The notes under the pieces are model-generated. The model was not told the origin of the DNA. It searched no databases and saw only the letters and a program-made list of their open reading frames with translations. Positions 13,118 to 63,387 of a stretch of DNA of 64,000 nucleotides are shown piece by piece. The first letter of the stretch is position 1. Each line of letters starts with the position of its first letter. Source of the DNA: a virus; the IMG/VR virus record IMGVR_UViG_3300025168_000063, positions 1 to 64,000 of that record; one strand, 5' to 3'. The position numbers and the translations under genes were made by a program.

Positions 13118-13164
13118 TACAGTAGGTTGGGTGTCTTAACATAAAATCATTTAAGGAGATTAAT

Positions 13165-13596
13165 ATGACAACATTCTTTCAAGAAAGGTTCTATCCAACG
13201 GACCTATTATTCAGAAATTTTTTCGACGGAGAAGCTTCATTTAGAGGCTTACAAGATAACAAACCAAGCTATCCAGTAGATATATATCTACAAGAGGATA
13301 ATTTATGTTTTGATATTGCATGCGTCGGGTTGGAAAAAAGTGATATAGATGTCACAGTAGAAGGCAGTACATTATTGATTGCCTATACAAAACCAAGTGT
13401 AGAATCAAACCCATCAGATGTTAAAGCACCGGACTATATCCATAAAGGTATAGCTCGAAGAAGCTTTGATATGGGATGGAAAGTAAGTCCGAAGTTCGAT
13501 CTTACAAATATAAACGCAACAATGGCTAACGGATTATTGAAAGTGGTAGTACCAGTTTCAGAGGAAAGTAAGCCAAAATTAGTTACAATTAAGTAA
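13165..13596 (+). CDS. hsp20: Small heat-shock protein (Hsp20/alpha-crystallin)
   Basis: YPVDI, YIHKGIARRSF, ATMANGLLKVVVP. Confidence 0.93.
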   Translation: MTTFFQERFYPTDLLFRNFFDGEASFRGLQDNKPSYPVDIYLQEDNLCFDIACVGLEKSDIDVTVEGSTLLIAYTKPSVESNPSDVKAPDYIHKGIARRSFDMGWKVSPKFDLTNINATMANGLLKVVVPVSEESKPKLVTIK

Positions 13597-13627
13597 AATA
13601 TGATACCCAACCTACTGGAGTTATATG

Positions 13628-61600: not shown

Positions 61601-62338
61601 AGTAAAATAAAGACTGGTGAAATCCAATCCAACAATTGGACTGGATTAGCAGGTGCAAAAGGAACTTTACTTGATTTGGATAATGGTAAGTTAATCATGC
61701 GAACTAATACTGAAGATTATCTAAACTTTAATGCAGCAGCAGGTACAGCCAATATTGCAGGTTGGACTTTCAACCAACAGAAATTTTATTCAAATTCATC
61801 AAATGAAGTTCGTGGAATTAATATCAATAAAAATGAGGGTATTAGAGGAAGAGCAGCAAATGAAGCATATGCAATCTCTGGATCAAATACATTTACTAAT
61901 CTAAGCTTCGGAATCCAATTGTTTGAAAATCCAGCAGAAACAGTAGCACAAGCTAAATCAGGTTGTTTCCCAATCGGAACAAGAATATTATTATCAAATG
62001 GTACTTGGAAAGCTATACAAAATATTGAAATTGGCGACCTTGTAAGAACAAAAGAAGGAACCAATGTACCAGTATTAGATTCATTTATTTGGAATGTAAA
62101 TAAAGAAATGACTATGTATACAAATAAAGAATTAACAGTAACGGATACTCACCCATTATGGATTAATGGTAAATGGCAAACTGCAGATAAATTAGGATGG
62201 GATAACGAATTGACGTATGTTGATAATTTATATTATCTACAAACAGAAAACAATTATATAGTAGAAGGAACCCCTGCTACGGGTATTGTATTACCAACAG
62301 CACTGGGTGTAAGTATAAAAAATAAAGGAGAAGTGTAA
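52700..62338 (+). CDS. Giant tail fibre/adhesin (3212 aa): GNVGIG repeats, 2 LamG, CBM-like and ILEI-like domains, C-terminal Hint
   Basis: LamG GYWNFD...DEIRIYN and HYAFD...DEVRIY; YALIG ILEI-like region; CFPIGTRI...TDTHP. Confidence 0.85.
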   Translation: MADIFIYDGHISSSDGIKLQVSESNALFISHSEGLGFDLGGYGPKVGIGTITPSVPLDVEGGILGAHIARFTRVQGLGGTNAQVAINANSSDPQIQFARGTGAYAIGLNDGDNSFQIIDGTTISGGTARFTINSSGNVGIGTTNPQSLLTVSGSDGGNFTTFLRFGKDNYTAGSGPAMFFKTSPNTTLDRYGVKLGAIRKGSGTAEFVIEQELDNGSGGAGGLSETLRITSFGNVGIGTSTATAKLEVIGDISGSGAASFETNLKVDGKVAIAAPNNTSTADLIIGDGTTNVNVTLFGNEDSATQASLWFGDVASAASPHYGGSGFVYDGNDNHLTIRKGGSTNNLFTIDADNGNVGIGKVSGDPTAKLEVVGDMIVGGIETGNIISSPQYFSGFAGSGFRIQSGSTGVKAEFDNLSVRGSFQVYELVANQVRATNGSLWISNAGKIISSSQLDGFGGASWPVSFSMFFETGSDTLDHGFVRGDVIRSQKFDGSNVFQSNMIVCSRSDSGSIIAALEDQSTPPSASMDFVRIGHTFDEDRDAAIYLTAEDTNAPYIDVIDGVDSHTAFAQSDKIKVRLGNLAGITDVNVGGALSGYGLYSENVYLTGTIKAVAGEIGGFGLNATSISSSNDNLILRSTGQITASDFLFDGSGTIDGDVTIGSNVTIAGQLSVGALPNLPSDESLVGYWNFDQGTGSLIRDQVGSLDSNGNRYDIPTVDPDGTPDSLGAFTSESISGIAWKRDSAGSAQYAINVTSSFSSSFGNACSGSISFWLNTDLSTNGDDQSKIFGENGENAGFNKEDFFFIDQQPGGQIRMLAYSGSGGTGGFGTGNEYVSAQGAGTSLTILQDLGTNAGSGGGRGISSSLAAANSGSKGWAHWVINWGSGSNFVGNSDHAFRIYINGEKVSHRIMTGSDARINFRPYNQRLAWIGQKNDDATIDEIRIYNSVLTPNEVRALYLSPAGMNTGTTVTGDQIQTGQIRSNNWNNDTDGSMIDLTNGRMHLGGLEANAKLHFDGTNLSVAGTVSASAGNIGGWKIESDKFVDGSDTIRLEPNGTYVISSSEFQVDQAGSITASSANFSGNVTSSQALIGGWTVDSGSISSNNAKLDAAGKLSLSSSKFTGTGIQLENNSGAPRAYIGDGNLTGSFIQYDETNGVRLGPAVTLAFGSTMLPGENILNDFSNLSITDPWVASATPNYYPIGEATDNEVSTSVGPHGLNEKVWVASPDSDTDGGGWMSDWFEVDHSQTYQFSVYVKFPAESRMTGSWYMGARSGDENIFIGASGSQNPATNPGQNSAYHWPKYYSVPTFGPHGHHYDHAHYTSTGQALAAGAALGAMQDYQADNSGITNWNPYFMHLTGDGTNSKGHFTQSIAEGGLGGQQDRWYLCVGYIHGSSSLYNNSVGDIGGMYDTVTGRKVRDGNDFIWGSGSQWLSVRSFHNHDAYGADDDTPYTLWAKPAVKKVTQATTDISSFIDIGSAIATGQYSGSSTFITSTSIFSPNIAGTDGYISNKLTVGTAGSGVTLDGTNKKLFLGTGDWKGSNTPFIARDSGSDFLTNGSLTNGTTGWTIGGSHLTTTNAPEVTNLITNGYGYQAITNLVVGLRYDLNWIIPSSTGTWSFYVSDDTTYNTGVNGVTTADTSNTGFNAGQKSFTAHQTTAYIFAFNIGGAGTVGTWPQLSVTQEGVFSLGDKFAWDGSTLQITGSLSLTAGDASASISQLNVDSASFSTLIADHSSSAASSITQNADSITAAVSVNDGQASSISQLQISTGAIELEVNSLNEASGALSGSVVELNLTTASINLSVASIQGQVTQSQFNNLDWSQGYSGWNWHGSTGNYQGLNSVGENLDGWTTGSMSHLNGIAYTSGSLAGAKMFEVVSGSNLSGSRFGRALEARSSENGNQTWVYGSEAVPIDTDRVYQGRVRVRMAHVGDNGETYSGFYAGFACLDQFGNQISESPGTHRYFTVGGKNILPSDPYTWNEYSGSISRTTTEAGGAGSEDLSLIGDFIGNNGRASGTPTTHNVFKTGTKFVRPMMIFNYSNKDTAMQVDGFTIEDVTPTVQSSASISITDTQVQTNVSNISGNSSTITQNADGITLAAATASDVASLAINPQGVQISGSNLEFSGSSFYFGIGAAQSGSGAFISGSNGNIEISSSNFHIQASGSAIFSGSISASDGDIGGWSLQPGTFSSNNITLDSANEIITLGSGNEITLDGDGSGHVAGGNVAWTSTGDLTITDASIEVNSLPSLPSSDKTVRHYAFDAGHGTTVLDQGGTAQNGTLTVSTGTPNGLPTWISGSGISGSVSGKALSFNAIAVPHSGSGQHIVIPTLAIDSNGAGNAFAISFWARKSSITDDFSVGSYNYQRIFRGGSSNNFIDLGIASGKFRWNHEGTDNTGGNHSVFNSSVTADTEWHHYVLVSKYELNELYIDGELEGTDAWSATGNSAQNYGAGFSFTGIGQGGDFASSQYSPNYGDGWNGALDEVRIYTGSLSPNEIKGLYLNPAGDKGTKITGDQITTGKIKSNNWNDSNAGSLIDLDEGTVHLGGSGSNANFYFNEAGDLSITGSITAESSTITGNIYADNIVTNSGSIGGWTISADSIESGSSNTAGGDSIRLWGSPTVVGTNAYQSTQTKLQGLSIQWHESNNAGHIVFGDVLTDANGAPEDPNGTPAYNGWKGIQAQKYNEDNPYFQLAFNTDGAFATKNIIAGWEFTEQKIINYNGTEPLLELKNTTTAGDFIISASNFQVDTAGAFTASAGLIEGDVRMRGKLEVLDPTGVQTHTLYARGTDFSNISTHPARVQGGNNISETSFTIGQNLVILSESVAGVLEKRHKSAYDTHNSIANGNTLAGILMGTSTYSDVNGNATTLEGTDVVLIVSHDASKISTNLHAALKSVGGTNPHARDSSQNVQAIPTTATSRTPYALIGQQGLGHGNGFEKVGRYDEADHPSGSAEITAFFKNGQISANTSTGTEIAGSKIKTGEIQSNNWTGLAGAKGTLLDLDNGKLIMRTNTEDYLNFNAAAGTANIAGWTFNQQKFYSNSSNEVRGININKNEGIRGRAANEAYAISGSNTFTNLSFGIQLFENPAETVAQAKSGCFPIGTRILLSNGTWKAIQNIEIGDLVRTKEGTNVPVLDSFIWNVNKEMTMYTNKELTVTDTHPLWINGKWQTADKLGWDNELTYVDNLYYLQTENNYIVEGTPATGIVLPTALGVSIKNKGEV

Positions 62339-63387
62339 TGGTATTCATACCAGTAAATCAAAACAAAAAATTTAGAATATTGATACGTTCCACGGAAGGG
62401 ACTGAAATAAGTTATTACGGAGCTAGAGGAGGTACAACAACCACTGCCACTGGAACGTTTGTAAACTCGTCTGATACTTCCGAGAGTCCATCTGATATAG
62501 TAGGCTATATAAACCAGATGGTAAAGTGCACTTATGTAGATAGTAAAAATGCAAATTATGGATCTGGAACGGGTGAAGTTGATAATGAATATAGTAGCGC
62601 TGATGATAAATTTAATGCTGCATCCAACATATGGTTAGAAGTGGTAGCAGTACCAGAAACTGGAACTGCAAACCGTATTGTGTTTCGACATACAGACACA
62701 GCTGACACCGCAGATCCATTTGCAAAAGTCAAATTCTTCGGATCGGTGGTTTGTAATAAATTGGGACTAGCTGAAGATACTTGGTATCACGGAGCAGGAT
62801 TCAATCTAAGTGTAAACCCAGAAGTAGAATCATTCTTCAGAGGAACGGTAGTTGCTGACGCACTTAATGTTCAAGGGACATCGTATTTTGGACCCAATTC
62901 CAGATGGAGAGGTGAAATGACGTTCGATGTTTCAGGTTCGGAATCTCAACGCCAAGGAATGCTAATAGCCACGGGTTCTGGAATTTTTGGAAAGTTCATA
63001 TACGAACCATTCACATCAGGGTCTGTTTGTGAAGTTGATGTGGTACGATCGAGAGGTGATGTAATTGCATTATATTCATCCGATGAAAGATTGAAAGATG
63101 ATATACAATATATCCTAGATCCAGTGGCAAAGGTAAAGCAATTGAAAGGTGTTACATTCAAGTGGAACGATAAACAAAAATACCGAGATCCAGGAAGTAA
63201 AGATGTTGGAATTATAGCTCAGGACTTGCAAAAGGTATATCCCGAACTAGTTGAAACCGGCTCAAGTGGGTATCTTGGTGTGAAGTATGAGAGACTGTCA
63301 GGATTACTTATAGAAGCTGTAAAAGAGCAAGCTAACCAAATAGCCGATCTCAAGAGCCGGTTGAATAATTTGGAGAGTAGACAATAA
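62338..63387 (+). CDS. Tail fibre protein with peptidase S74 intramolecular chaperone
   Basis: SSDERLKDDI, GVTFKW, GIIAQDLQKVYPELV, VKYERL, terminal coiled coil. Confidence 0.9.
   Translation: MVFIPVNQNKKFRILIRSTEGTEISYYGARGGTTTTATGTFVNSSDTSESPSDIVGYINQMVKCTYVDSKNANYGSGTGEVDNEYSSADDKFNAASNIWLEVVAVPETGTANRIVFRHTDTADTADPFAKVKFFGSVVCNKLGLAEDTWYHGAGFNLSVNPEVESFFRGTVVADALNVQGTSYFGPNSRWRGEMTFDVSGSESQRQGMLIATGSGIFGKFIYEPFTSGSVCEVDVVRSRGDVIALYSSDERLKDDIQYILDPVAKVKQLKGVTFKWNDKQKYRDPGSKDVGIIAQDLQKVYPELVETGSSGYLGVKYERLSGLLIEAVKEQANQIADLKSRLNNLESRQ

Follow-up and report, generated by a model that had tools for sequence, protein, structure and literature searches.

In Bacteroidia, the anti-Shine-Dalgarno (anti-SD) sequence of the ribosome is sequestered by the proteins bS21, bS18 and bS6 (PMC7797042). 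In Flavobacterium johnsoniae, the Y54A substitution in bS21 or its loss raises translation of a strong-SD reporter 3-5 fold, loss of the C-terminal part of bS21 lowers initiation on SD-less mRNAs (PMC9976891), and ribosomes free of bS21 gain the reading of SD sites (Jha 2021, PMC7797042; McNutt 2023, PMC9976891); phage-encoded bS21 appears in these two papers (PMC7797042 and PMC9976891) only as speculation. We describe here the first 64 kb (64,000 nucleotides, referred to as the window) of the 75,535-bp IMG/VR virus record IMGVR_UViG_3300025168_000063, a contig of marine origin without terminal repeats, in which SD sites are concentrated upstream of predicted late genes. The best overall explanation, to which we give about even odds (roughly 0.5), is that of a Bacteroidota phage whose late SD sites are served by a phage bS21. 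The logic would be that of the F. johnsoniae system, where SD sites are read only by ribosomes with bS21 absent or altered, and the early leaders of the window are A-rich and SD-less like F. johnsoniae host mRNAs. The F. johnsoniae system is, however, a host autoregulatory loop acting on rpsU alone through very long SDs (below -13 kcal/mol), whereas dozens of phage late genes with a short AGGAG are concerned here and the bS21 at work would be a foreign one.

Large bS21-encoding myophages assigned to Bacteroidetes hosts were described by Chen et al. 2022 (ISME Commun 2:31, PMC9723584). In these phages, which also encode a Clp protease and chaperones, bS21 is found among terminase, portal, prohead protease and capsid genes and is transcribed with the late genes; it was proposed to enter host ribosomes and to favour phage mRNAs, and the aromatic residue at position 54 of 61/61 proteins led to the conclusion that the anti-SD is blocked as by the host protein (PMC9723584). 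Compared by published description, they have in common with the family studied here the head-gene neighbourhood of bS21, but most bS21 proteins of the present family have Arg at position 54. Phage SD sites are absent from the PMC9723584 analysis, whereas here bS21 goes with SD-rich late genes. A preliminary description of the window had pointed to both the sequestration of the anti-SD and the presence of bS21 in some Bacteroidia phages, in agreement with this literature (PMC7797042; PMC9723584).

The phage from which the window comes is a T4-type myophage resembling Immutovirus. Its gene order and all-plus-strand layout resemble those of Flavobacterium phage vB_FspM_immuto (Immutovirus; NC_055915), hereafter immuto, which shares with the contig an early motif, TTG...TAT(A/C)TTTA, and a late motif, ATATTTAT[A/T]. 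Identity to immuto is 42% for the baseplate wedge, compared from the window's own gene, and 48% for the portal, compared from the gene of a sister phage (L229), the window having none. Immuto has no bS21 and, unlike the contig, is SD-poor in every gene class. In T4, early genes have host-type promoters and late genes a short A/T-rich -10-like element with no -35; SD sites occur in all gene classes, and RegB cuts GGAG in early mRNAs, which stops early translation. The promoter programme and the portal, baseplate and head genes are T4-like here but, unlike in T4, the early genes are simply without SD.

Shine-Dalgarno sites of early and late genes

A total of 71 gene starts were called from the first ATG with a limit on overlap with the preceding gene, SD sites being ignored. 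Because many late proteins gave no match to PHROG or Pfam, the early and late classes were set by promoter motif and not by function. The SD score was the pairing of positions -20..-4 with ACCUCCUUU, with -5 kcal/mol or better counted as SD-like and positions -40..-24 used as mock control. SD sites were found in 20/34 late-class genes (mock 0/34) and SD-like pairing in 8/34 early-class genes (mock 3/34), the background over every genome position being 14% at -5 kcal/mol or better. The two classes differed from each other (Fisher p=0.006; Mann-Whitney on energies p=9e-5) and the late genes from the background (p=3e-9), which was not the case of the early genes (p=0.14). When only the first gene behind each promoter was considered, a SD was present in 0/8 early and 7/11 late cases (p=0.013). 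No SD was found in 14/34 late-class genes, and the early/late split is statistical, leaky both ways and not absolute.

In late genes, GGAG starts at -15..-8 only, with a modal spacer of 7 nt to the ATG and a consensus A-GGAG-A; the duplex energies of the 20 late genes range from -5.8 to -11.8 kcal/mol. GGAG stands anywhere from 1 to >20 nt after the late motif, but its spacing to the ATG is fixed at 6-9 nt, and it is therefore placed relative to the start codon. Complementarity to the 16S CCUCC core, fixed spacing and enrichment over control windows, as expected for Shine-Dalgarno sequences, were thus all observed. Comparison with a sister phage (~80% nucleotide identity) showed that the SD state is concordant in 23/28 late gene pairs, a SD being present in both phages in 15 and in neither in 8, often despite diverged flanks; the ungapped identity of the SD core (0.56 vs 0.45 in the flanks) is blurred by shifts of 1-2 nt and was not used. 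The strongest site, that of the baseplate wedge gene (23973), is the same in relative G001, weak (AGGA) in L015 and absent from L030 and immuto; the L030 ortholog still retains the late promoter motif. As judged from the sequence, the late SD sites are genuine and under selection.

These calculations agree with the gene-by-gene reading of the preliminary description. The leaders of genes 674, 3633, 4202, 5379, 6507, 8194 and 10074 are A-rich and show no anti-SD pairing (-1.1 to +2.3 kcal/mol), the eleven late genes that it named have AGGAG, GGAG or GAGG 6-9 nt before the ATG (-6.4 to -11.8 kcal/mol), and its two exceptions, 52700 without SD and 1937 with AGGAG, are correct. The difference in anti-SD pairing energy between the classes holds over the 34 early-class and 34 late-class genes.

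Eight genes (674, 3633, 4202, 6507, 8194, 10074, 15076 and 15610) lie behind the sequence TTG-N20-[T/G]AnnTT[T/A]A. Compared with the Bacteroidota promoter (-33 TTG/-7 TAnnTTTG), the final G is replaced by A in these predicted early promoters, whose geometry equally fits sigma-70. The late motif ATATTTAT[A/T] was found 14 times on the + strand and 5 times on the - strand, with no TTG at -33 distance, and seven copies stand in the few short gaps preceding late genes. With its short A/T-rich -10-like element, the lack of a -35 and the position before late or structural genes, this putative promoter fits the T4-type late form.

bS21 in the nearest relatives and across the family

The preliminary description had proposed a search of the remaining genome for rpsU or other ribosome-modifying genes. 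A search for PF01165 (bS21/rpsU) gave no match at E<=10 on the 75.5-kb contig, which represents about 45% of the genome; in the two nearest contigs, bS21 lies at a syntenic place beyond the point at which the present contig ends. The proteins that correspond in these two contigs to the product of 72103-74451 are 85% and 89% identical to it, and one of the contigs shares its source metagenome with the closest baseplate relative. In each of them, a bS21 of 117 aa (51.9 bits) is encoded 9.8 kb after the counterpart of the 72103-74451 gene. By synteny, the phage itself very probably encodes bS21 about 9 kb past the contig end. Contigs of many related phages in the likely source metagenome cover the relative's stretch from the NTase-ligase to bS21 with 80-90% identity; none of them could be assigned to this phage, itself only 80% identical to that stretch.

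In the nearest relatives, the bS21 gene is preceded by a perfect host-type promoter, gTTG-N20-TATATTTA, and an A/T-rich SD-less leader (+0.9 kcal/mol), and the flanking head genes have AGGAG 7 nt before the ATG. The bS21 of this sister lineage has Arg at the position of F. johnsoniae Tyr54 (+12 from the Ser of KPS), long basic extensions and a strongly basic C-tail, through which its best alignment is with E. coli-type bS21. Chain 7jil_z of F. johnsoniae comes 13th for this protein (22.9 bits), and the Bacteroidia-type features, Tyr54 and a weakly basic C-terminal part, are both missing. A subgroup of family bS21 proteins (L309:1372-1725; L041:1363-1776; L102, L114, L116) is longer at both ends, with a basic extension of 40 aa at the N-terminus and, at the C-terminus, an extension in which [Y/H/T]-[V/C]-W is conserved; the cellular bS21 proteins in the PDB have neither.

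Within the family, bS21 (PF01165) is present in G002, Microcystis phage Mel-JY01 and G009-G013, 3-8 kb after the portal gene and adjoining the prohead protease and an acidic scaffold protein; a genome-wide PF01165 search confirmed it in G009, G010 and G011 and gave no match in immuto or in the 100%-complete G014 and G015. We fetched 160 portal-gene loci, 45 of which reach at least 7.5 kb downstream. The SD frequency was 0.27-0.57 in 23/23 loci with bS21 (pooled 0.40, background 0.10) and 0-0.19 in 22/22 loci without it (pooled 0.05, background 0.14), an association that is one independent contrast because the portal tree has a single change in each trait, and that co-inheritance or a host shift could produce. 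The counting of the 45 loci as 45 observations was rejected for the same reason.

SD sites are depleted in the bS21-less immuto, G014 and G015. Across the whole genome of immuto, SD-like pairing was found at 11/232 starts (4.7%) vs 16% by chance; a depletion of this kind has been reported for Flavobacteriales genomes (PMC9976891). At wedge-gene loci, the SD frequency is 58% in the clade of this contig, 25-50% in a large second clade, and ~0% in two more clades, of which one is that of immuto. The early/late split is repeated in G009 (97% complete, with bS21), where 38-67% of genes have a SD in most structural bins and mostly 0-14% in the small-gene region at 40-110 kb, with one 10-kb bin at 24%.

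The position-54 equivalent is not aromatic in 23 of the family bS21 loci and is Tyr or Phe in 10. Loss of Tyr54 was considered as a general explanation of SD use and rejected, as the Tyr-retaining clade is also SD-rich; simple Tyr54 loss is therefore not the mechanism. Neither bS18 (PF01084) nor bS6 (PF01250) was found in five relatives, and tblastn with family bS21 detected no cultured Bacteroidota phage with bS21 outside the family.

In several clades, the bS21 gene is preceded by the late motif, then a hairpin with a T-run, then an A/T-rich SD-less leader (L051:12800-12864, L060:11960-12022, L061:16340-16404, L063, L078, L090, L108); from its sequence, the hairpin with T-run looks like an attenuator or autoregulatory 5' element. 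In the bS21-encoding G010 (contig of L100), positions 12.4-21.9 kb (oriented) contain a repeated early cassette made of TTG-N19/20-TATATTTG, a leader '...gtaagattaagaacaaccaa...' and, 6-8 nt before the ATG, AAGGAA.

Gene content and probable host of the phage

The contig has a CheckV completeness of ~45%, a G+C content of 36.5% and all its plausible genes on the + strand. The first 10 kb encode a MoxR-type ATPase, an endonuclease and an ATP-dependent DNA ligase (8194); Hsp20 (13165) and ClpP are encoded at 13-17 kb, and the baseplate wedge (23973) and tail-fibre proteins from 24 kb onward. The contig contains no terminase, portal or capsid gene, and the head module is therefore missing. Megablast of 6 kb of the contig against GenBank phages gave no match. 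The nearest GenBank relatives, from the wedge and portal comparisons, are Mel-JY01, immuto and the huge phage LR756508; the next-closest portal after the family is that of Rhodothermus phage RM378 (34.5%), those of T4-like coliphages and cyanophages being at ~24%.

Several lines of evidence, indirect but in agreement, point to the Bacteroidota as the likely host phylum, and most likely to the Flavobacteriia; the host is thus probably SD-blind. In immuto, which was cultured on Flavobacterium sp. LMO8, the early motif recurs at 35 sites preceding small genes and the late motif at 20 sites preceding structural genes; 20/25 copies of the latter lie <=60 nt from starts, including those of terminase, sheath and tube. 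The complete relative G010 has the exact Bacteroidota consensus TTG-N19/20-TATATTTG. A permuted two-piece tmRNA (Rfam RF04321, 62.9 bits; ARAGORN tag GEQVEMAMAA) is present at 12420-12586 (+), and a 33-48 nt piece of it matches only the tmRNAs of Cellulophaga, Maribacter and Chryseobacterium phages. One clade of family bS21 shows the Bacteroidia pattern KPSV..A.Y.Q. Five relatives were also searched for the T9SS sorting domain PF18962 as a marker of the host, with no match.

Coordinates of the predicted promoters and the SD sites are collected in the table below. The -10 context of the ligase promoter, AAAGTCCGTATCTTTA, is also found in immuto.

Table. Predicted promoters and Shine-Dalgarno sites of the window
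Feature	Position	Strand	Remarks
Early promoter TTG-N20-TATATTTA	619..649	+	24 nt before ATG 674; A-rich leader, no SD
Early promoter TTGCAT-N17-GATCTTTA	3561..3591	+	Palindrome, then A-rich SD-less leader; 3633 (+2.0 kcal/mol)
Early promoter, same cassette as 3561..3591	4135..4165	+	For 4202; SD-less leader
Early promoter, same cassette as 3561..3591	6433..6463	+	For 6507; SD-less leader
Early promoter TTGCAT-N17-TATCTTTA	8121..8151	+	Ligase gene 8194; SD-less leader
Early promoter TTGACT-N17-TATATTAA	9995..10025	+	For 10074; SD-less leader
Host-type promoter	15032..15062	+	For 15076; no SD
Host-type promoter	15554..15584	+	15610 and ClpP operon; first gene without SD
Late motif ATATTTATT	13094..13102	+	62 nt before hsp20 gene
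Late motif ATATTTATT	19429..19437	+	Start of long late block; same motif precedes immuto structural genes
Late motif ATATTTATA	22829..22837	+	Motif search
Late motif ATATTTATA	35485..35493	+	Motif search
Late motif	40237..40245	+	7 nt before ATG 40253, no SD
Late motif ATATTTATT	44770..44778	+	Motif search
AGGAG, early-block exception	1925..1929	+	7 nt before ATG 1937; higher-G+C stretch
AGGAG, in early operon	10788..10792	+	9 nt before ATG 10802; kept in G001
AGGAG	13154..13158	+	6 nt before ATG 13165 (Hsp20); kept in relative G001
AGGAG	19448..19452	+	8 nt before ATG 19461
AGGAG	22841..22845	+	7 nt before ATG 22853
AGGAGG (in AGGAGGAGGA)	23961..23966	+	6 nt before ATG 23973, baseplate wedge; strongest SD, -11.8 kcal/mol
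AGGAG	25849..25853	+	7 nt before ATG 25861
GAGG (in GAGGA)	31229..31232	+	6 nt before ATG 31239
AGGAG	35507..35511	+	9 nt before ATG 35521
AGGAG	36153..36157	+	8 nt before ATG 36166
GGAG	41587..41590	+	10 nt before ATG 41601 (SbcD-SbcC-like fusion); GGGAGG in G001
GGAG	44800..44803	+	7 nt before ATG 44811
GGAG	48282..48285	+	6 nt before ATG 48292 (tail fibre)
Leader without SD	52675..52699	+	Late fibre gene 52700, +0.2 kcal/mol
AGGAG	62326..62330	+	7 nt before ATG 62338 (tail fibre)
GGAG	63372..63375	+	11 nt before ATG 63387

The palindrome tctttatctt-GTA-aagataaaga recurs at 3585-3617, 4159-4191, 6457-6489 and 8145-8177, each time overlapping the -7 box and the start region of an early promoter and followed by a near-identical A-rich leader. 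Its role could be that of an operator or of a 5' hairpin. In three SD-less late genes, the late motif stands 3-7 nt before the ATG (40237-40255; genome 64812-64826 and 71393-71407), an arrangement also seen at the terminase gene of the sister phage (L229:14665), and these sequences suggest that the genes may give leaderless late mRNAs. The stretch 1820-3291, inside the early block, has a G+C of 0.38-0.42, higher than its surroundings, contains 3/8 of the early-class SD-like sites (before 1937, 2168 and 2596) and may be an acquired cassette. Within the late block, 41601-44768 (+) encodes a 1055-aa fusion of SbcD-like and SbcC-like nucleases with its own GGAG, a fusion also kept in Mel-JY01 and LR756508, and 52700-62338 (+) a 3212-aa fibre that combines Laminin_G_3 domains with a Hint/Vint domain at the C-terminus (residues 3081-3180).

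Competing explanations and significance

In the mechanism that we propose, early genes would be transcribed from host sigma-A-type promoters and their mRNAs, with A-rich leaders and no SD, translated like host mRNAs. Late genes would follow from the phage-specific late motif ATATTTAT[A/T] and carry AGGAG ~7 nt before the ATG, sites that a phage-supplied bS21 would make useful. In this lineage a host-type promoter and a leader lacking SD would serve bS21 synthesis; we infer that the protein enters host 30S subunits and alters the holding of the 16S rRNA 3' tail, so that the retuned ribosomes translate SD-led late mRNAs of the phage in preference to host mRNAs without SD. Retuning of the ribosome is plausible, if unproven, and the chances that phage bS21 unmasks or re-tunes the anti-SD appear roughly balanced. 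The stronger version, with a truly SD-reading ribosome for which the SD is a private label and at the expense of host and phage early mRNAs, falls a little short of that and is put forward tentatively. The preliminary description placed the unmasking late in infection. Unmasking as such would fit the co-occurrence of bS21 with SD-rich late genes, which is one phylogenetic event; its timing is doubtful, because the bS21 gene of this lineage lies behind an early-type promoter.

A number of observations weigh against the proposal that phage bS21 serves the late SD sites. The contig itself has no PF01165 match, and bS21 and SD richness both change on the same single branch of the portal tree. Loci with Tyr or Phe at position 54 are still SD-rich (pooled 0.32 vs 0.40, p=0.12), and the bS21 gene of several relatives is behind the late motif and not an early promoter. 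The eight early-class genes with SD-like sites include clean AGGAG sequences at 1937 and 10802, and early genes of G010 also carry SD-like sites, mostly weak AAGGAA. The late SDs are short, mostly -6 to -9 kcal/mol; in F. johnsoniae, a response was obtained with SDs below -13 kcal/mol and no gain with a weak-SD mRNA (PMC9976891). Lastly, the relative Mel-JY01 (PP395634.1; L002, L042) was deposited with a cyanobacterial host, Microcystis elabens, which is the chief discordant point on the host phylum.

The late SDs could be real and yet be served, with no change made by the phage, by host ribosomes that are naturally free of bS21 or have a looser anti-SD. Such ribosomes might become more abundant as host rpsU expression stops, the bS21 of the relatives being otherwise employed or co-inherited. 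The bS21-free subpopulation of F. johnsoniae ribosomes indeed prefers SD mRNAs (PMC9976891), and this explanation would accommodate the single split of the bS21-SD association on the tree, the independence of SD richness from the position-54 residue and the SD-like sites of some early-class genes here and of G010 early genes. It offers, however, no reason for early genes to avoid SD, and it has to face the fact that all 23 SD-rich loci (23/23) carry bS21, while the sister clade without bS21, which has the same promoters and whose member immuto has a proven Flavobacterium host, is below chance in SD. We therefore consider it rather unlikely.

Less likely still is a host that is not SD-blind, either a cyanobacterium or a partial SD user, in which the split would be a tuning of expression only: abundant virion proteins would get a SD and small early genes would rely on unstructured A-rich leaders. 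The portal of Mel-JY01 is 51% identical to that of L229 and its wedge 47% identical to the window's, the sister-lineage bS21 is closer to the proteobacterial than to the F. johnsoniae protein, and the early promoter geometry equals sigma-70. The window moreover encodes Hsp20 and a MoxR/CobS-like ATPase, both of which also occur in cyanophages. Against this, a phage grown on Flavobacterium has the identical early motif, the -7 box of G010 is exactly that of the Bacteroidota (TAnnTTTG), the tmRNA matches are all in Flavobacteriia phages, and portals of T4-like cyanophages (~24%) are more distant than that of RM378 (34.5%). In SD-using hosts, the early genes of phages normally carry SD too. Mel-JY01 itself, of which 42 kb were sampled, has a G+C of 32%, the G+C of Microcystis being well above this value; it has TATATTTG boxes directly before some starts, encodes bS21 and clusters with Flavobacterium and Rhodothermus phages, and its recorded cyanobacterial host deserves a second look.

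That GGAG is not a ribosome-binding element but part of a late promoter or start region, or an RNA-processing target, as the cleavage of GGAG by T4 RegB and the sites at 22853, 69473 and 74472 (only 1-4 nt after the late motif and maybe outside the transcript) might suggest, is very improbable given its complementarity to the anti-SD core, its fixed distance to the ATG (6-9 nt) beside a distance to the late motif of 1-21 nt or more, and the location of most SD-bearing genes within operons, without a late motif close by.

Phages often encode bS21. According to the proposal in the literature, bS21 steers ribosomes to phage mRNAs, but no feature that would mark those mRNAs is named, and full-text searches turned up no publication in which phage bS21 is connected with late genes led by SD. 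Here and family-wide, the marking feature appears to be a plain SD site, in a phylum that switched SD off. In practical terms, the starts of genes in these phages will be misplaced by gene-finding programs that follow SD-less Bacteroidota models. If phage bS21 does serve the late SD sites, this would give a defined job and a cis-element to the most common phage-encoded ribosomal protein, and would be a clear example from nature of a virus that alters which mRNAs the ribosome selects.

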